Positions 4,492 through 43,890 of a stretch of DNA of 45,774 bases are shown one piece after another. The position numbers and the translations under genes are program-made. The first letter of the stretch is position 1. The number at the start of each line of letters is the position of its first letter. The DNA comes from a phage. A model generated the notes under the pieces. The model saw nothing but the letters and a program-made list of their open reading frames with translations, was not told the DNA's origin and did not search any database. The stretch lies in sequence record PZ349761.1; one strand, given 5' to 3'.

Positions 4492-4542
4492 CGTGCCTAA
4501 AACGCATTCTAACGAACTATAATTTAAGTAAGGTGATTCATC

Positions 4543-4674
4543 ATGGTAGCGAAAGAAAGCCCCGCAGAGTGGTGTAAGCGAATGCAAGACGAAGCTAAAA
4601 CGGGCGAAGAGGCGATGGCTTACTACGAGCTTGCAAAAATTTGGATGGAACGGGAGAAAAAGAGAAATGACTAA
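4543..4674 (+). CDS. hypothetical small protein (43 aa)
   Basis: Short ORF with RBS AAGGTG upstream; read by eye. Confidence 0.3.
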   Translation: MVAKESPAEWCKRMQDEAKTGEEAMAYYELAKIWMEREKKRND

Positions 4675-4819
4675 CACTTGTGTATTTTTTTATGATGGTG
4701 AATTTATTGATGACTTAATCTACTTCAATGAAAAGTATGGCGACACATTCGAATGCGACGGTGACAATCTCGAGGTTCTAGCGACATTCAATAGGGGTGG
4801 CAAAAATGAGTTTCACTGA
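4667..4819 (+). CDS. hypothetical small protein (50 aa)
   Basis: In-frame ATG within track ORF 4631-4819, overlapping upstream stop. Confidence 0.4.
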   Translation: MTNTCVFFYDGEFIDDLIYFNEKYGDTFECDGDNLEVLATFNRGGKNEFH

Positions 4820-4949
4820 ATATGTTATCGCATGTGAACGACTGGTCTTTGATATGAAGACTTTTCACTGGTTCATAATTAAGGATTTAATAAAGCCTTA
4901 TAAGCAAGGCGTTACGCCAGAGACGTTTGTTGAGTCATTCTACAAATAG
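4806..4949 (+). CDS. hypothetical small protein (47 aa)
   Basis: Short ORF ending in TAG inside box at 4946. Confidence 0.3.
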   Translation: MSFTEYVIACERLVFDMKTFHWFIIKDLIKPYKQGVTPETFVESFYK

Positions 4950-4963
4950 CACTAAAAGCTAAA
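4946..4963 (+). promoter_or_regulatory. conserved box variant ATAGCACtaaaaGCTAAA
   Basis: 22-nt spacer, TATAAT 4984-4989, leader CTATCAATACAACGAGAGAG, ATG 5023. Confidence 0.55.
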
Positions 4964-5022
4964 CGCAGTCGCCACGGATGGCATATAATTACCCTATCAA
5001 TACAACGAGAGAGATAAAGCAA

Positions 5023-5220
5023 ATGAACAAAAAATCAAATAAAGTTACCAAAGTTAAATCACATATCGCAGAAAATAATTATGAGGAGCCTTTGGATTTA
5101 GGTTTCAATTCAAGAAAAGTGGTTGTTAACGGAATCATGGGTTTTCATTCTCGCTGCGTTATAGCTAAACCAGTTATTGGCTTTGAGTCTCGATGCGTCT
5201 TTGTTGGTGGGGTCTTATAA
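5023..5220 (+). CDS. hypothetical small protein (65 aa)
   Basis: In-frame ATG downstream of cassette inside track ORF 4978-5220. Confidence 0.45.
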   Translation: MNKKSNKVTKVKSHIAENNYEEPLDLGFNSRKVVVNGIMGFHSRCVIAKPVIGFESRCVFVGGVL

Positions 5221-5459
5221 TGTTCGGATTATCAGAAGCACACTTTAACGCAGTTAAACGTCAGGCTGCAAAGTTGAACGAAGAGTACAGCAAGTTATCG
5301 CCAAAGCAGCGTAAGGACGATAAGCAGGTCGCGGCATTGATTTCAAAGATGTGGGAGCCAGTTTTCACAATCATCAGTCGAGATCGCTTTGTTTGGACTA
5401 GCGGTTATCTTAAGGGTCGCGTTGGTCACGACGAGAATGGGAATAGCCTTTATGAGTGA
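5220..5459 (+). CDS. hypothetical protein (about 80 aa)
   Basis: ATG overlapping upstream TAA (TAATG) inside track ORF 5193-5459. Confidence 0.45.
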   Translation: MFGLSEAHFNAVKRQAAKLNEEYSKLSPKQRKDDKQVAALISKMWEPVFTIISRDRFVWTSGYLKGRVGHDENGNSLYE

Positions 5460-5516
5460 GTTAACAATCTGGTTTATCGCAGGTATGATTACTTGGGCTT
5501 ACTTTATGGTGGCAGC

Positions 5517-5741
5517 ATGAGAACATTGAGGCAGATTTTACACGGCTGCAAGAAGCATCACTACGTTTACTATCGTGATATTAAATGGTTCGAGGAGGCT
5601 CATTGCAAAGGTGGTTACAAGACGAAGTTGATATGTAAGAAATGCAGGCACGTGACCAACAGCAAGGTTGATATGATGATTTGCCGTAGCACTCTTGATT
5701 ATATGCGTTACGGGCTCATAAAACCGCCAGTTAAGCCTTAA
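5517..5741 (+). CDS. small Cys/His-rich protein, possible zinc-ribbon
   Basis: CKKHH..HCKGG..CKKCRH..C pattern; in-frame ATG inside track ORF 5493-5741. Confidence 0.4.
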   Translation: MRTLRQILHGCKKHHYVYYRDIKWFEEAHCKGGYKTKLICKKCRHVTNSKVDMMICRSTLDYMRYGLIKPPVKP

Positions 5742-15847: not shown

Positions 15848-15906
15848 GCGCTCATTCAACTTTGATGTATAGTTAACTCATCGAAACGAAATGAGAGATT
15901 AAAGAA

Positions 15907-27095: not shown

Positions 27096-27593
27096 CCGTC
27101 TAGCCTGAATGTCTTTAGCTATTCGTGCTAATGTTTACGCGTAACCGATGTAACTCGATGTATACAATCTCATCCGCGGAAAATGATATACGCACTGTTA
27201 CGCCAACTTACGCATTTGTTACATTAAAATATCTATATATATCAACCTTTTACTCTTATTATTATTATTATATATATTACTGTGTATATCATGTAACTAC
27301 TTCTATAGAGTGTTCCGGTTATAATTTTAATATCATGTGATTTTATACAGTATTGCACGGCAGCTATACCAATGCACCATCAGCAATAAATGATATACAC
27401 GATATACACGCCGGTTACATTGAGCTATAGATGGGCTGAGATGCCAAAAAACGTAACTAATGGCAATGCCTACACGGAATTACAAGGATTTACGCGTAAA
27501 CTTAAATCAACGATTGGCAAAACCAATTGGACTGGCTACGGTGCTGAATATATAGTTACCTCATCGAAATCAAAAAACCAGAGAGATACATAA
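27096..27593. repeat. second AT-rich repeat-laden control region: (TTA)5 at about 27256-27271, TTTACGCGTAAA palindromes (27134-27144, 27489-27500), GATATACAC direct repeat (27400-27418)
   Basis: 27207-27295 is a roughly 85 percent identical direct repeat of 115-200; track ORFs here look spurious. Confidence 0.6.
27114..27132 (-). promoter_or_regulatory. conserved box variant (minus strand reads ATTAGCACgaataGCTAAA)
   Basis: Downstream on minus strand: TACTAT, CCATCGAAACGAAAC (27071-27082), ATG 27047. Confidence 0.55.
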
Positions 27594-34849: not shown

Positions 34850-36844
34850 ATGTTGCCTATCGAGAAGCTGGTTGCCAACTTCGATAAAGAAAGAATCAAA
34901 CAGATTCAGAAAGACTATCAGTTTGGAGAGATAACCCCTTACGAATTCCAGTGCGTGACATTTGATGCAATCGGAAAGGCTATTGGCAAGTACGAGGCAC
35001 CATTTATCGCAGACCTTTCAGTATCTGCGGGTAAGACAATCATCCTGGCTATGATTGGTAAGCGCATGGAGCAGCTTGGGCTTCCTTATATGGTTCTTTC
35101 TCGCCAGTCAGAGATAATTAGCCAGAACTCAGAAGAGCTTCGTAATTTCGGCATCCGTAATAGCGTCTATTGCGCTGGCCTTAACGTCAAATCAGTTTAC
35201 TACCCAACTATAGTGGCCAGTGAGGGTACGGCAGCCAACGGCTTGTTTAAGGGGCTTGGTGACTATGTTCCGGCAGTTATCGCTATAGATGAGTGTCACA
35301 TGGTCGATCACATGGATATCGTGGAGGCTGAAGAGAATGAAGAAACATTTGAGCAAATGAGCACAAAGAAAGGCGATATGGTTTTTAAGGATGGCGTAAA
35401 CACAGGATTGCTTGGTACTGGTCGTGCGCAGTACACGCTAATTATCACCGAGATGAAACGTCGTTGTCGTGAGAAGTACGGGCGTGAGCTTCGTATATTC
35501 GGTCTTACTGGCAGCCCGTATCGTAACAACGATCATATCGTCGTTAGCAACCCAAACATCCGTGGATTCTGGCGCAAAACAGTGATTCAGGTGCCAACAA
35601 ATTATCTGGTTGATTTGGGCTTCGTGGTTCCTACTGTTTATGGTGAAGTTGGTGACCTGGGTTATGACCTTAGTGAGTTTGCGCCAGACGGAAGCGATGG
35701 CGTTAAAGACTTCAGCAAGAAAGAAATGGATGCAATGGCTGCAAAGATTCACGACAACCAATCAATGACCCAAAAGATAATGGGTTTTGTTGTGAAAATA
35801 CTCGAGACTCGTAACGCTGCATTGGTAACATGCGCTGGCAAACTCCATTGTGATGAGGCTGCTGCGGCACTACCAGATGGATACCCTTACGCCATCATCA
35901 CAGACTCTACGAGAGAGAGGAAGCGCAGGGAGATTCTGGCTGATTGCCAGACAGGTAAGTACAAAATAATATTCCAGATTGGTTGTCTTACTACGGGCGT
36001 AAACCAGCCGCTGTGGGATACTAGCGTCATACTACGCAAGATTGGCAGCCTAACGCTTATGATTCAGCTTCTTGGTAGGGGGATGCGCAAACTTAAGAGA
36101 TCTCATATTGATGCTGGTTTTCATAAAGAAGATCACCTTGTGCTGGATTTTGCTGGCGCACTTGATGATATGGCTGAGCTTTACTTTGACCCAATTATTG
36201 AAGAGATTCAGGCTGAGAAGTTTAAATCCTCAAGAAAAGGTGGCGATGAGGTTCGTCAGTGTCCGCAATGTGGATATGAAAATTCCCCATTCGCTCGTCG
36301 ATGTAGCAATAAGATTGATGGCGTTAGATGCGATTACTTTTTCCAGTTCACAACATGTGAGGATATCACGGACCCTCAGACGAAAGCTATTATTAAAAAG
36401 GGTTGTGGCGCTCGCAATGACATAGCAGCAAAGGTTTGCAGGGAATGCGGCGAGATGCTTAAAGACCCAAATGCTAACCTGACTGGCAAAATGTATCGTC
36501 GTGGTGATTACCTTCGTGTTTATGATTTTCAAGTTGGGTTAAGTAAGAATCAGACAGGAATTGTAGTTAAGTACAATATAATGGCTCATAACGGAGAGAG
36601 ATTTAACGCTTGGGAGTTCTTTAATCCAGAATCAGACCATCGAGTTTGCAGTGTGCTCTGGAAGAACTTTTGCTTAGCTCATATTGAGAATCGCACGGAA
36701 GCGGCACGAATTGGCAGGCTTAAAAATGCCAGAATGATTATGACTAACGTAGATAAGTTCCGTGCGCCAGTTCAGGTTACGCATCGCCGGAATGCAAAAG
36801 GAAAGGACGTGATAGCGTTTAAGAATTTTGGAGAATTATTATGA
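34850..36844 (+). CDS. SF2 DNA helicase with C-terminal zinc ribbon
   Basis: Walker A SAGKT, DECH box (AIDECHM), Cys pairs CPQCGY..C..C near C-terminus. Confidence 0.8.
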   Translation: MLPIEKLVANFDKERIKQIQKDYQFGEITPYEFQCVTFDAIGKAIGKYEAPFIADLSVSAGKTIILAMIGKRMEQLGLPYMVLSRQSEIISQNSEELRNFGIRNSVYCAGLNVKSVYYPTIVASEGTAANGLFKGLGDYVPAVIAIDECHMVDHMDIVEAEENEETFEQMSTKKGDMVFKDGVNTGLLGTGRAQYTLIITEMKRRCREKYGRELRIFGLTGSPYRNNDHIVVSNPNIRGFWRKTVIQVPTNYLVDLGFVVPTVYGEVGDLGYDLSEFAPDGSDGVKDFSKKEMDAMAAKIHDNQSMTQKIMGFVVKILETRNAALVTCAGKLHCDEAAAALPDGYPYAIITDSTRERKRREILADCQTGKYKIIFQIGCLTTGVNQPLWDTSVILRKIGSLTLMIQLLGRGMRKLKRSHIDAGFHKEDHLVLDFAGALDDMAELYFDPIIEEIQAEKFKSSRKGGDEVRQCPQCGYENSPFARRCSNKIDGVRCDYFFQFTTCEDITDPQTKAIIKKGCGARNDIAAKVCRECGEMLKDPNANLTGKMYRRGDYLRVYDFQVGLSKNQTGIVVKYNIMAHNGERFNAWEFFNPESDHRVCSVLWKNFCLAHIENRTEAARIGRLKNARMIMTNVDKFRAPVQVTHRRNAKGKDVIAFKNFGELL

Positions 36845-37260
36845 AGATTACAGATAAAGAAGATTACATTGAGTTTTACCCTGGTCCGGTTAAGTCATGC
36901 CCTAAAGAGGATGACGAACAAATCTTTTGCTCTGATTGGGTTAAGTATAACTACCCAGATATGGTATTTTTCCATTGCGTGAATGAGGGAAAGAAAACCA
37001 TTGGTCAAGCAAGAAAAGACCAGGCTAAGGGGCTTCTAAAAGGCGTATCAGACTGTATGTTTCTTATTCCTGAATCACTTCGAGGTAAGTATCCTTTCGG
37101 AGCTATAGAGCTAAAGAGGGCTGGCAAAACTCAAGCAAGTCCAGTCAGCGAAGAACAGAAGGCATTCCTGAAAAGTGTAATGGAATCAGGCGGTTTCTCG
37201 GCAGTCGCCTACGGACGCGAGGGTTTTCTGGCAGCATTTAAAGAAATGATTTCAAAATAG
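36841..37260 (+). CDS. VRR-NUC-type nuclease domain protein
   Basis: D..E.K pattern (SDCMF..GAIELKRAGK); ATGA overlap with helicase. Confidence 0.55.
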   Translation: MKITDKEDYIEFYPGPVKSCPKEDDEQIFCSDWVKYNYPDMVFFHCVNEGKKTIGQARKDQAKGLLKGVSDCMFLIPESLRGKYPFGAIELKRAGKTQASPVSEEQKAFLKSVMESGGFSAVAYGREGFLAAFKEMISK

Positions 37261-37274: not shown

Positions 37275-37338
37275 GACGAATCGGTGAGGTGGTGTATTAT
37301 CACTTCATCGAAACGAAACAGAAAGAGAGAGAAACAAA

Positions 37339-38115: not shown

Positions 38116-38306
38116 TTAATGCAACTTGTGTAAAAGCAAATGGTTCCTTTACTCTACTTGAAGATTACGAAATTATCTTTAATTCAGATGGTGCAATAAC
38201 AGTATTAAGCGATGATGGATGCTATTGGTTCGTTAGTTATCAAGGTGATGGGTATTACGGGTGTAGAGATTCGAATGGAAAAGAAGTTAGCTTCTTAGTT
38301 GAATAG
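38112..38306 (+). CDS. hypothetical small protein (64 aa)
   Basis: ATGA overlap; stop TAG in box. Confidence 0.45.
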   Translation: MINATCVKANGSFTLLEDYEIIFNSDGAITVLSDDGCYWFVSYQGDGYYGCRDSNGKEVSFLVE

Positions 38307-38320
38307 CACTTTTTGTTAAA
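38303..38320 (+). promoter_or_regulatory. conserved box variant ATAGCACtttttGTTAAA
   Basis: TAG stop inside box; AT-rich -10 about 38341-38347; ATG 38377. Confidence 0.5.
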
Positions 38321-38376
38321 ACTCAAATCCACGTATGGATTATATTAAGCACATCAACAACACATAGGATTAAGAG

Positions 38377-38502
38377 ATGAAAATTGTAGACAGAGAGATG
38401 TTTGAGATCGCACAGATATACGCAAATGATGCTGTAAAAACTGGCTCTTATTATTGCTGGATGTGCGCTAAAGAATACCTGAAAATGGCCTACGGCTTAT
38501 GA
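38377..38502 (+). CDS. hypothetical micro-protein (41 aa)
   Basis: Short ORF with RBS AAGAG; stop overlaps next ATG. Confidence 0.3.
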   Translation: MKIVDREMFEIAQIYANDAVKTGSYYCWMCAKEYLKMAYGL

Positions 38503-38747
38503 TAGTTGAAACTGGGCGAGCAGCAGTATGGGCGCATTGTGGAGAGGCTGGATTGCAGGATGACATTAAGCAGATATCACGATTCTTTGACATAAAAGAT
38601 ATCAGCGTTGTTTTCAATGGTAAATTCTCATACATGGATGAGCGACCAAGAAAATACGTAAGAGTTAAGCCAGGTGTCAGGATTGATGTTAATGAATTCC
38701 TTAAATCTGAGGGATTCAAGTTTAAGATAACGAAGCCTAAGGATTAA
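38499..38747 (+). CDS. hypothetical small protein (82 aa)
   Basis: ORF from track. Confidence 0.45.
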   Translation: MIVETGRAAVWAHCGEAGLQDDIKQISRFFDIKDISVVFNGKFSYMDERPRKYVRVKPGVRIDVNEFLKSEGFKFKITKPKD

Positions 38748-38749
38748 GT

Positions 38750-39001
38750 ATGTTGGGTTTAGATTTTCAGCCAGAGCATTACGATTTAGTATATGGACAA
38801 AGTGGATCTAAGTTTAGAACGATACCTATTGCTGACTGGTTCCCTCCTGACTATGTTGATGTGAATGCAAAAACTAAAGACGGCAAGTGGGTGCAGATTT
38901 ACTACTCCCCAGCATGCGGAAGCCTTTGCATGGCTGACCTTGATCAGAAATTAGCAATTAGTGCGGAAGTGATAGACTACTGGTTGAAAGAAGTTGAATG
39001 A
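38750..39001 (+). CDS. hypothetical small protein (83 aa)
   Basis: ORF from track. Confidence 0.45.
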   Translation: MLGLDFQPEHYDLVYGQSGSKFRTIPIADWFPPDYVDVNAKTKDGKWVQIYYSPACGSLCMADLDQKLAISAEVIDYWLKEVE

Positions 39002-39084
39002 CGAGCCTAATACTAGTAGCATCGTTACCACTGTTTAGCTTTACCATCTTATACTTTATCGTAATGAATTAAGGAACTTCTATA

Positions 39085-40215
39085 ATGGCAACCGCAAAAA
39101 TCACCAACGAACAATTGCGCGAAGAGTTAGCAAATGGCATGACCAACAAGGCAATCGCAGAGAAGTACGGAATGAACATTCGCAACGTTGAATTGCGTCG
39201 CAGTAAATTAGCTAAACAAGGCGAAGGGCATGGTCGCGATGTAAGCAACTTAATCCCTCAGGGCTATGCAGTTAAAGGCGTCTCCAGCTTAATTGGTGCT
39301 GATGGCGAGATTAAGCAACAGTGGGTTAAATCAGATATCGACAAGGAGAAGCAAGAAGAGATGATGCTTCAGGCAATTCAGGCCCTAACTGATGAGTTGC
39401 CGCGTGAGAAAGTTAAAGCCTTAAGGGTTGGTTTGTTTGAGGACACTTTAAGCCTTTACCCCGTATTCGACCTTCACATTGGCGCAATGGCTCATCATGC
39501 TGAGTGCGGAGAGAATTATAGCACCGAAATCGCTGAACGAGTCCTTAATGACTACTTTGATTATGCGGTTGCAAAAGCCCCTAACTCAAAGAGGGCTGTA
39601 TTGCTGATTGGTGGTGACTTCCTTCACTCTGACGGAATGGAAGCTGTAACTCCAACGAGTAGACATATTCTTGACCAAGATAGCCGCTATCACAAACTTG
39701 TTTACGTAGCAGTGCGAGCAACTCGCCGAGCAATTAGTAGAATGCTTGATAAGCACGCCGAGGTTGAAGTTCAGATTATCCCAGGAAATCACGATCTCTC
39801 AGGTATGATTTGGCTTCGTGCTGCAATGGCAGCTTTCTATATGGATGAGCCTCGAGTTAGTGTTGATACGTCCCCAGCTGCGCTTCACGTAACGCAATTT
39901 GGGAAGACGCTGCTTGGTTACTGCCATGGGCACGAACTCAAAAAGCCTGATACACGACTATCAGCACTGGCTCGTGACCATCGAAAAGCATTTGGTGAAT
40001 CAGAGTATGTTTACACCCATTCAGGCCACTACCACCATCAAACTATTACGGAAGGAAATCTGGGTATTGATGAATCACACGGCCAGCTTGGAGCGAAAGA
40101 TGCGTACAGTGCTAACGGAGGTTATCGCTCTTACCGACAGGCTTCGGTGATAATTTATAGTCCTGAGTTTGGTGAGATTGGACGATTTACTTGCCGACCT
40201 GAAATGTTTAGTTAA
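39085..40215 (+). CDS. calcineurin-like metallophosphoesterase with N-terminal HTH-like domain
   Basis: Ordered motifs DLHIG, GGDFLHSDG, PGNHDL, CHGHE, HSGHYHH match the metallophosphatase signature; N-terminus has helix-turn-helix-like NKAIAEKYGMNIRNV. Confidence 0.6.
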   Translation: MATAKITNEQLREELANGMTNKAIAEKYGMNIRNVELRRSKLAKQGEGHGRDVSNLIPQGYAVKGVSSLIGADGEIKQQWVKSDIDKEKQEEMMLQAIQALTDELPREKVKALRVGLFEDTLSLYPVFDLHIGAMAHHAECGENYSTEIAERVLNDYFDYAVAKAPNSKRAVLLIGGDFLHSDGMEAVTPTSRHILDQDSRYHKLVYVAVRATRRAISRMLDKHAEVEVQIIPGNHDLSGMIWLRAAMAAFYMDEPRVSVDTSPAALHVTQFGKTLLGYCHGHELKKPDTRLSALARDHRKAFGESEYVYTHSGHYHHQTITEGNLGIDESHGQLGAKDAYSANGGYRSYRQASVIIYSPEFGEIGRFTCRPEMFS

Positions 40216-40232
40216 TAGCACTTTTTGCCTAA
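40215..40232 (+). promoter_or_regulatory. conserved box variant ATAGCACtttttGCCTAA
   Basis: Directly after TAA stop; hairpin ATGCCGCA-gaaa-TGCGGCAT, CATAAT 40253-40258, CATCGAAACGAG 40264-40275, ATG 40300. Confidence 0.6.
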
Positions 40233-40299
40233 CGCATGCCGCAGAAATGCGGCATAATTACCACATCGAAACGAGATGAACTAAACGAGGAAACACAAA

Positions 40300-40476
40300 A
40301 TGACTAAAATGATTTATTGCACCAAGAACAACTCCAAGACACTGCCATTTACAGTTAACCAACCGTACAATGCAGAGTACCAGGGTGACGGATACTACAA
40401 GATTTACGGCGACGATATGACGTGGATTTTAGCGCCGATTGATGGTTCGCTGGTTGAATTTATTATCGCAGACTAG
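40300..40476 (+). CDS. hypothetical small protein (58 aa)
   Basis: Short ORF with cassette promoter and RBS ACGAGG; read by eye. Confidence 0.4.
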   Translation: MTKMIYCTKNNSKTLPFTVNQPYNAEYQGDGYYKIYGDDMTWILAPIDGSLVEFIIAD

Positions 40477-42116: not shown

Positions 42117-43700
42117 TCACCCCAGCAATCTCGGATTAATGTAAACTTTATCACCAATCAGGCACGTATAGTTTTTCTCATCAAGCATTGGCAGTAAGTG
42201 ATCTTTAATCTTCGTCATCACTCCAGCCTGAGCCTCGAACGGCTTAACCTTTCGCGCCGCTTCATACAGTGAACGAATACCAACTACGCCTTTACCGTTC
42301 TTACCTTGCTTGATTAGTATATCAATCAACTTGTTCATCTCGGCATTGTCTCCAGCGTGACCGGCGGCGTTAGCGGATGACAGGTAAGTCTTGCTAAGTT
42401 CCTGGAAGATAATGACGGCTTCTTGCATCGTATCTAACTCAATTTCTCTCGACTTCTGCGGACTACCACCGTTAGGGTTGAACCAGTTACGCACAGTGTG
42501 AAGTACCGCTGCAATCCTTATTGCCTGTTTATCAAACTTACCCAAAGCGCCGCGCAACATTGTGTGTGAATACTTTCCTCCGTCAGCAAGGTGAGGCTCC
42601 ATCTCCTGGCGTGCTCGGTTGAGATATTTCATTGCAGAGTTACTCACTGTCAGCTTAACATCTTGCTCATTCATTATTTCGTGAACCAAGCGGAAGTAGT
42701 CAGCCTTCAGGCCACCATCAATTGGCTCGTATGTTGAATCTCCATTCTCATCAACAAAAACACGCTCACCCAGGAATGACTTCTCGCGTACAAGCAGAAA
42801 ACGTTCCGACACGCCGATTCCACGAGCGCCCGCGTTCATGATCGCATTTATTGTTTCATCCTGCGCAATTACCGAGATGCAACCCATAGCAACGAAGCTC
42901 ATGTTGTTCTCTGCGTTTGCACGCGCGATAGATACGTTACCCGCATCCCATGCCTTCAGTACAAGCTCGCTGTTCGTTTTCTTTGAGCCATCACCATAGG
43001 TCATGCCCAGAAGTGAGTTCACGCTCGTTGCCTCGTCAGAGATAACAGCGAAGTTTCCCTGGCGATTGTTGATTCTGGCTAGACCTTCAGGTGTTGTATC
43101 GGACACGGGGAATACTATGTCACAAAGTTTCTCTAGCTTTTCCTCAAGTTCCTCTTTCTCCTCAAAAAGTGAGGCCATCTCTGATGGTGACTTTTCCTGC
43201 TTCATCTCCTTGGATAATGCAGATAGTTTAGCCATTATTTTCTTGCGCTCGCGCTTTCGCACTTCATTAAGCCGCTCAGTCTCAGCGATCATTGGAGCAA
43301 TAGAAAGTGAGTTGATTGCTGATTTACCAGTCGATGGCGGCTGGCTTGTTACGACGTACAGCGAGGTTGGTTGCTGAGTCCCGTGATATTCAACAGTAAA
43401 TCGTCCAAGCATGGCGGCAGAAATACACCCCAGAAAGTGCATGTATGCGGATGACTCTGGAAACTGGACCGAACGAGCAATATTGGCTGAAAGTTTGCCA
43501 ACAACATCAATATCATTACCGAGTGAGATTACTGGATACTTGTCATTTGCCGCATCAATCTCGACAGGAGCTTTCCAGAATGATTGAGACTGACGATAGC
43601 CATTAGCATTAATAGCCACTCGCAGGGGTGGGAGGTTGTCTGCGGCAGCAATTGCCATAACCTGTTCAACAGATAGTTTATCTTCGTTGAAATCAAACAT
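42117..43700 (-). CDS. P-loop NTPase of unknown function (full-length paralogue of 1002-1532)
   Basis: Walker A-like PPSTGKS; N- and C-terminal segments shared with the 176-aa protein at 1002-1532. Confidence 0.6.
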   Translation of the reverse strand: MFDFNEDKLSVEQVMAIAAADNLPPLRVAINANGYRQSQSFWKAPVEIDAANDKYPVISLGNDIDVVGKLSANIARSVQFPESSAYMHFLGCISAAMLGRFTVEYHGTQQPTSLYVVTSQPPSTGKSAINSLSIAPMIAETERLNEVRKRERKKIMAKLSALSKEMKQEKSPSEMASLFEEKEELEEKLEKLCDIVFPVSDTTPEGLARINNRQGNFAVISDEATSVNSLLGMTYGDGSKKTNSELVLKAWDAGNVSIARANAENNMSFVAMGCISVIAQDETINAIMNAGARGIGVSERFLLVREKSFLGERVFVDENGDSTYEPIDGGLKADYFRLVHEIMNEQDVKLTVSNSAMKYLNRARQEMEPHLADGGKYSHTMLRGALGKFDKQAIRIAAVLHTVRNWFNPNGGSPQKSREIELDTMQEAVIIFQELSKTYLSSANAAGHAGDNAEMNKLIDILIKQGKNGKGVVGIRSLYEAARKVKPFEAQAGVMTKIKDHLLPMLDEKNYTCLIGDKVYINPRLLG

Positions 43701-43756
43701 TACTTCTCTCCGTGTTGTTTCTGAGCGGCCATTATAACAACGACCGCTTATAAAGC

Positions 43757-43774
43757 ATTATCAATTTGTGCTAT
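43757..43774 (-). promoter_or_regulatory. conserved box variant (minus strand reads ATAGCACaaattGATAAT)
   Basis: Follows TAA stop of upstream micro-ORF; about 20-nt spacer then TATAAT (plus 43731-43736); ATG of P-loop gene at 43700. Confidence 0.5.
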
Positions 43775-43890
43775 TAATTGTTCTTAATCCACTTTAAACA
43801 CATCCACAATGCAGCCCCATAGAATGCAATCTTAAGAACTTCAGCTAAGACAAGGATAATAAAGTATCCACCACCAAGTAAATCAATCAT
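43774..43890 (-). CDS. hydrophobic micro-protein (38 aa, single predicted TMD)
   Basis: Short ORF with ATGA overlap to upstream gene; read by eye. Confidence 0.3.
   Translation of the reverse strand: MIDLLGGGYFIILVLAEVLKIAFYGAALWMCLKWIKNN

Follow-up and report, generated by a model that had tools for sequence, protein, structure and literature searches.

Phages T1 and TLS degrade the DNA of their host and reuse its nucleotides through genes that have not been identified (PMC11447400), and T1-like phages encode no DNA polymerase (PMC11447400). A gene that joins a helix-turn-helix (HTH) segment to a phosphoesterase domain is persistent in 508 of 522 Drexlerviridae (PMC13164509). In phage KP36, its product, gp63, is annotated as a 'DNA repair exonuclease', as 'similar to T1p16' and with the domain PF08281 (Sigma70_r4_2). 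Here we describe the counterpart of this gene in sequence record PZ349761.1, a phage genome of 45,774 nucleotides (nt) that is referred to below as the window. The DNA belongs to a T1-like coliphage of the Drexlerviridae (Braunvirinae) that is 98 per cent identical to JeanPiccard; residues are numbered on the product of the gene's open reading frame (ORF), 376 amino acids (aa) in length. On balance, we consider it probable that this product is a stand-alone, DNA-acting nuclease (phosphodiesterase) of phage DNA metabolism, because it combines a predicted intact two-metal site, nuclease-like fold neighbours in the model, an HTH and neighbouring genes that process nucleic acids.

Catalytic core and N-terminal domain

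An earlier reading of the letters alone (hereafter, the sequence-only reading) had credited this ORF with the ordered metallophosphatase motifs. All five are present (Table 1), and their positions are invariant, or nearly so, when 41 or 141 diverse homologs with only ~30–40 per cent identity to the query are aligned. As judged from these alignments, the conservation of the ordered motifs goes far beyond chance. The Pfam Metallophos score of the protein is marginal (20.3 bits, with a cutoff of 21.5), and the beta-sandwich phosphoesterase fold is unambiguous in an AlphaFold model with a mean predicted local distance difference test (pLDDT) score of 93.3 and core values of 95–99. This model was built from the 141-sequence alignment and replaced one from a shallow alignment, in which the pLDDT was 73 and the motif V region was disordered. 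The protein belongs to the calcineurin-like metallophosphoesterase superfamily (Pfam PF00149 clan), and its active site is predicted, from sequence and model, to be intact and complete for two metals.

A sequence search of PDB with the single protein gave no match at E ≤ 10. Among structures, the fold-neighbour figures are highest for the proofreading exonuclease PolD DP1 (15.9), SbcD (14.7), Mre11 (14.7) and MJ0936 (14.1), and lower for LpxH (13.4), a PdeM-type 'Nuclease MPE' (9.2, with 23 per cent identity) and Protein phosphatase 5 (9.0). Foldseek ranks Mre11 of T. maritima first, followed by Rv0805, DP1 and GpdQ. In a viral structure library, the family groups with many phage proteins of ~400 aa that were automatically named 'DNA polymerase II small subunit', and a phage protein annotated as SbcD does not come until rank 47. 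According to the model, the catalytic core most resembles the DNA exonucleases PolD DP1, SbcD and Mre11 and forms a family of its own.

At the N-terminus, the model has three helices (residues 8–16, 21–28 and 32–44; pLDDT ~79–95), followed by a flexible linker at residues ~45–60. The N-terminal segment matches Sigma70_r4_2 in 9 of 41 family members (best E = 1.5e-9) and GerE in 5 of 41 (best E = 2.4e-8), as well as HTH_23 and related HTH families. The protein's own GerE match is below threshold (E = 0.045), and searches of PDB with the family profile return GerE (1fse; E = 0.013) and, also marginally, the HTHs of LuxR-type response regulators. Profiles and model together indicate that the N-terminal domain is an HTH of the sigma-70 region 4/LuxR-GerE fold type. 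The sequence-only reading was right to see an HTH here, but the domain spans ~40 aa (residues ~8–44) and not the ~90 aa that had been assigned to it. The beta-hairpin and helix beyond the linker, in which G74 and W80 form invariant, low-entropy columns of the 141-homolog alignment, are kept in HTH-less homologs such as that of Campylobacter phage F370, whose alignment begins near residue 65. Residues ~60–118 are therefore best regarded as part of the catalytic module.

Family size and distribution

The protein matches PHROG 704 ('DNA repair exonuclease') across residues 4–375 (E = 8.8e-149). In tblastn searches, 2050 phage records match, 1743 of them over at least 80 per cent of the query; among them are Drexlerviridae, Jerseyvirus, Dhillonvirus, a Casjensviridae Rhodobacter phage, Vibrio siphophages, N4-like roseophages, and Flavobacterium and Campylobacter phages. 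An exhaustive hidden Markov model search recovers 5493 cluster representatives at 50 per cent identity (1403 at E ≤ 1e-30), most of which are 370–420 aa long, and the N-terminal HTH region is present in 140 of 141 full-length representatives. The fusion of the two domains had been called unusual. It is instead the standard architecture, as seen in these representatives, in PHROG 704, in the annotation of KP36 gp63 and across the Drexlerviridae. Members of the T1 gp16 family have been named 'DNA repair exonuclease', 'phosphoesterase' and 'proof-reading exonuclease', all of which are annotations only. The gene is a catalogued Drexlerviridae core gene, both domains of which were noted by earlier annotators; it is real and its occurrence is ordinary, and the observation adds little that is new.

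Peptide patterns scanned against 185,579 genomes, one for each bacterial species, matched at six loci, all on phage-sized or tiny contigs; one of the six evidently belongs to a contaminating T1-like genome. A comparable scan of viral contigs gave 461 loci. The peptide patterns were narrow, and the rarity in bacterial chromosomes and prophages is indicative only. The related loci returned from viral contigs were all from close T1-like relatives and offer no diversity of gene context. From these sequence matches, the gene looks like one of free lytic-type phages. One gene copy of 95 per cent identity lies on NZ_VSMK01000220.1 (contig L102 of our set), a 46,669-bp contig of T1-like genome size in an assembly of Nitratidesulfovibrio liaohensis. 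This contig is most likely phage contamination of the sulfate-reducer assembly.

Proposed function

Among the roles suggested by the sequence-only reading, that of a DNA-bound nuclease is best backed by the modelled structure and by gene context. In the window, the gene is the last of a rightward operon that runs from a helicase through a VRR-NUC nuclease and small ORFs. A polynucleotide kinase/3'-phosphatase and a deoxynucleoside monophosphate (dNMP) kinase are encoded directly downstream of the homologs in KP36, AAS23 and YenM_22, an arrangement found in many Drexlerviridae (PMC13164509). Elsewhere, the homolog directly follows a DNA ligase gene (Campylobacter phage F370), neighbours thymidylate synthase and dCMP deaminase (an N4-like roseophage), or closes an operon with a 5'-3' exonuclease and a primase-helicase (metagenomic contig L100).

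We propose that the protein would act as a divalent-metal-dependent exo- or endonuclease, presumably on DNA, that its HTH would hold it on double-stranded DNA, and that it would trim DNA ends or nicks during infection. Its most likely role would be the breakdown of host DNA to 5'-dNMPs for reuse, in which it would work alongside the 3'-phosphatase/polynucleotide kinase and the dNMP kinase often encoded next downstream. A nuclease that releases 5'-dNMPs beside these enzymes would fit the pathway by which T1 and TLS reuse host DNA. Alternatively, or in addition, the protein may process replication, recombination or packaging intermediates.

A more specific form of this proposal, that T1-like phages use this protein to destroy the host chromosome, with the enzyme tethered by its HTH and the 5'-dNMPs recycled into phage DNA, is possible but doubtful. 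If true, it would account both for the core status of the gene in polymerase-less T1-like phages and for its near absence from prophages. The gene is a reasonable candidate for the open question of which T1 genes carry out host chromosome degradation and nucleotide reuse (PMC11447400), and the family, with its thousands of clusters and its predicted intact active site, is a well-defined target.

Several points weigh against assigning the gene to DNA breakdown. Literature searches found no experiments on any member of the PHROG 704 family. Family-profile matches to Mre11/SbcD and PdeM are marginal (E = 0.03–0.8), and the PdeM model TIGR04123 scores only 18.7 bits against a cutoff of 150 (E = 9e-4). 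Other nucleases, namely the VRR-NUC protein and a RecE-like exonuclease, are available in T1-like phages, and how the proposed nuclease would spare phage DNA is without explanation. In several distant lineages, the neighbours of the homolog are terminase, portal or lysis genes in place of replication genes, a setting that suits a late or packaging function no less than host-DNA degradation, and the rarity in prophages carries the limit of the narrow scan given above.

Published work on related questions yielded nothing on this gene: a phage transposon-sequencing (Tn-seq) preprint and the KP1801 paper contain nothing on it, the escapers in the PUA-Cal-HAD preprint map to T2 denA, and searches for T1 gene 2.5 and for host-DNA degradation returned only citations. 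Transduction is improved in T1 mutants that fail to degrade host DNA properly (Roberts & Drexler 1981).

Apart from the phosphoesterase, the VRR-NUC nuclease and the helicase of the same operon are further candidates for the host-DNA-degradation activity of T1.

Alternative functions

The gene positions that fit the nuclease proposal least well raise the possibility of a packaging- or virion-associated nuclease, which would process DNA ends together with terminase and portal or be a particle component that is ejected along with the DNA. Homologs stand beside terminase or portal genes in distant lineages: between TerL and portal on metagenomic contig L011 (3359–4555), directly upstream of a portal-protease-capsid block on the P0189 contig, and at 4492–5682 and 42685–43827 of sequences L015 and L009, respectively. 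The homolog of EP23 adjoins TerS/TerL across the genome ends, that of YenM_22 is upstream of portal, and those of Vibrio phages are among head genes; further positions are after the lysis genes (RcPutin) and within the tail-gene region in opposite orientation (Jerseyvirus dunkel). In those lineages, the terminase and portal neighbours hint that the protein acts late or in connection with packaging. The ortholog of Pantoea phage AAS23 (ORF38) was moreover detected by liquid chromatography–tandem mass spectrometry in CsCl-purified virions (PMC8004638). That detection consists of one peptide with 2.67 per cent coverage in a sample that also yielded four peptides of the scaffolding protein, so that carry-over is likely; we set it aside as too weak to establish virion association, and the reported claim warrants caution. 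In the 508 of 522 Drexlerviridae, the gene lies far from terminase and closes a replication-side operon, and a standard TerS/TerL pair is already available to T1-like phages. We therefore regard a packaging or virion role as rather unlikely.

Less probable still, and distinctly unlikely in our view, is an anti-defence phosphodiesterase that destroys the nucleotide second messengers (cyclic oligonucleotides, cyclic nucleoside monophosphates and gcADPR-like molecules) of CBASS, Pycsar, Thoeris or type III CRISPR systems. The metallophosphoesterase fold does include cyclic-nucleotide phosphodiesterases, and Rv0805 and GpdQ are among the Foldseek matches (E ~1e-7); the gene also often sits at module boundaries, where accessory genes gather. 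Yet positive evidence is missing, including any match in PADLOC, whose library models defence proteins and not anti-defence ones; a DNA-binding HTH has no obvious use in a hydrolase of soluble signals; in Drexlerviridae the gene belongs to the persistent core and is not a patchy accessory; and its neighbours are enzymes of nucleic-acid and nucleotide metabolism.

Despite the fold resemblance, a canonical Mre11/SbcD double-strand-break nuclease partnered by a Rad50/SbcC ATPase is highly improbable, and so is a lambda-PP-like protein phosphatase, as the model lacks a capping domain, neither the window nor the annotated KP36 genome has an SMC-like ATPase gene, and phage SbcD-type structures rank so low in the viral fold search.

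Promoter boxes and the HTH

A repeat of ~20 nt, AAATAGCACGAATTGCTAAA, recurs in the window, and the phosphoesterase had been suggested as a candidate binder of this 'palindromic box'. The same repeat is given as aaATAGCACnnnTTGnTAAAA and left unexplained in the 2024 TLS paper. Box copies start at 1529, 1826, 2619, 3146, 4029, 4946, 8727, 15830, 29389, 37257, 38303 and 40215 on the plus strand and at 27131, 34282, 44556 and 45625 on the minus strand. They fit the asymmetric mar/sox/rob consensus AYnGCACnnWnnRYYAAAY (PMC3709825), which at no more than one mismatch has 16 matches in the window (1.0 expected) and 13 in KP36 (L007; 0.7 expected). Every box is oriented on the transcribed strand so that GCAC is distal, and the gap to a −10-like hexamer is 19 nt in 15 of 17 copies and 20 nt in the other 2. 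The orientation and the 19-nt gap are identical in the reference class II promoter micF of Escherichia coli K-12, and a class II soxbox lies at −41.5 (PMC9638938).

On the transcription-factor view, the HTH would bind the ATAGCAC...TTGCTAAA box and activate or repress the box-type promoters. The sigma region 4/LuxR type of the HTH, the box copy whose first base coincides with the final base of the gene's own stop codon and the lack of an explanation in the TLS paper speak for it. The box is, however, absent (0 matches) from the genomes of Jerseyvirus dunkel and Dhillonvirus EP23, whose orthologs differ very little in the recognition helix (NIRNVELRRSKLAKQG vs SRRNVQLRSARLAKKG and ALRNVYMRKARLSKKG). 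The box also fits the target of monomeric, two-HTH AraC-type activators, with micF-like geometry. Box promoters occur genome-wide, including before small, early-looking leftward and rightward ORFs, so that the factor must be present at the start of infection, and the strict conservation of the catalytic residues points to an enzyme. Because of the phyletic mismatch and the mar/sox/rob character of the box, the phosphoesterase is a poor candidate, and we give its role as box binder very little credence.

A phage-encoded MarA/Rob-like activator was also considered and rejected, as no such homolog is encoded in the window or in KP36 and the neighbouring regulator is Cro-like. By sequence, a host activator of the Rob/MarA/SoxS type would be the better candidate, and the T1-like promoters may be class II promoters served by it. 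Dropping the phosphoesterase as binder sharpens this observation, namely that T1-like promoters copy the host's class II mar/sox/rob geometry.

Further repeats were seen in the window. A conserved stretch, (A/T)CCCCATCGAAACGA, directly follows the −10-like hexamer of many box promoters (repeat families D2, D5 and D9; for example, 1565–1591, 15866–15892, 37293–37319 and 40251–40277). It would cover the start site of transcription together with the first bases of the transcript, and a discriminator, a leader RNA element or a second binding site are candidates for its role. Direct repeats 27 kb apart (D6 and D19; 76–78 per cent identity) pair 104–204 with 27195–27295 (~100 nt) and 342–387 with 27415–27460 (~46 nt), and they suggest that an intergenic or regulatory region was duplicated.

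The locus in the window

The protein has 98.4 per cent amino-acid identity to its counterparts in Escherichia phages JeanPiccard (Bas02) and 2725-N35, and the gene order around it agrees with that of JeanPiccard. No terminator-like site was found on the plus strand between the nearest upstream box-type promoter and the start of the gene, and this promoter would drive the ORFs at 38377–39001 together with the phosphoesterase gene as one probable transcript. The promoter at the stop codon is predicted to serve what lies downstream, namely the SH3/DUF7244 gene and the lysis cassette, and not the phosphoesterase gene; this SH3/DUF7244 gene is the shell gene that has been described for Drexlerviridae lysis modules (PMC13164509).

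Table 1. Features of the phosphoesterase gene, its product and its surroundings in the window.
Feature	Position	Strand	Residues	Remarks
SNF2-type helicase	34850-36844	+		With Helicase_C and several zinc-ribbon motifs
VRR-NUC nuclease	36841-37260	+
Nearest upstream box-type promoter	38303..38346	+		Box 38303-38321; -10-like TATATT 38341-38346
Putative ribosome-binding site AAGGA	39071..39075	+		9 nt upstream of the ATG; read from sequence
HTH-metallophosphoesterase coding sequence	39085..40215	+	376 aa	ATG start; ortholog of T1 gp16, KP36 gp63 and JeanPiccard bas02_0047
Predicted three-helix HTH	39106..39216	+	8-44	Sigma-70 region 4/LuxR-GerE type
Beta-hairpin and helix	39265..39390	+	61-85 (hairpin), 87-102 (helix)	Family-specific; part of the catalytic module
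Calcineurin-like metallophosphoesterase core	39439..40212	+	119-376
Motif I, D-L-H	39469-39477	+	D129, H131	Metallophosphoesterase signature DxH
Motif II, G-D-F-L-H-S-D	39613-39633	+	G177, H181, D183	Metallophosphoesterase signature
Family-specific loop VTPxSxHxLDxDxR			188-201	Inside the catalytic core
Motif III, G-N-H-D	39784-39795	+	G234, D237	Metallophosphoesterase signature
Motif IV, H-G-H	39925-39933	+	H281, H283	Metallophosphoesterase signature
Motif V, G-H-Y-H	40024-40035	+	G314, H317	Metallophosphoesterase signature
Box-type promoter at the stop codon	40215..40258	+		Box 40215-40233; -10-like CATAAT 40253-40258
DUF7244/stand-alone SH3 protein ORF	40300-40476	+		E = 1.3e-29; between the phosphoesterase gene and holin

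Comparison with known phosphoesterases

The protein shares with Mre11 and SbcD a phosphoesterase nuclease domain and, in it, the GDxxH and GNHD motifs; motif II reads GDLFH in Mre11 and GDFLH here. Unlike them, it lacks a C-terminal capping domain and ends with the core fold, has an additional N-terminal HTH and beta-hairpin, and is only 13–16 per cent identical in sequence. The large ORFs of the window include no gene for a Rad50/SbcC SMC-type ATPase, the fully annotated genomes of KP36, dunkel and EP23 have none either, and none is adjacent to the homolog in any sampled locus. The sequence-only reading had allowed that the protein might prove to be a standard nuclease of the Mre11/SbcD type: the resemblance is there, but without the capping domain and the ATPase partner, it is not a standard one.

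The archaeal 3'-5' proofreading exonuclease PolD DP1 differs in having an OB fold and a DP2 partner, both of which are lacking here; the identity is 12 per cent, and in the model only a two-stranded hairpin and a helix, with no OB fold, precede the phosphoesterase core. PdeM (PDB 6nvo, TIGR04123) is a protein of ~210 aa that, unlike the phosphoesterase described here, has neither HTH nor hairpin, and no gene for the Lhr helicase or the ligase of the PdeM gene cluster was found in the window.

A functional precedent exists in the metallophosphoesterase of cluster A mycobacteriophages (A10ZJ24 gp48, Bxb1 gp47), shown to be a DNase that damages host DNA and without which the phage does not replicate in M. 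tuberculosis (PMC12287305). It is ~255 aa long, lacks an HTH and does not belong to the same family. Homology to it was considered and rejected beyond the superfamily level (hhalign probability of 5.5 per cent, with only motifs III–V aligned).

Within Drexlerviridae, T1 gp16, KP36 gp63 and TLS gp66 form a family with 56–98 per cent identity over the full length, and the ORF in the window is a member of it. The members are alike both in their HTH and phosphoesterase architecture and in the location of the gene, upstream of the module of SH3, holin, endolysin and spanin genes.

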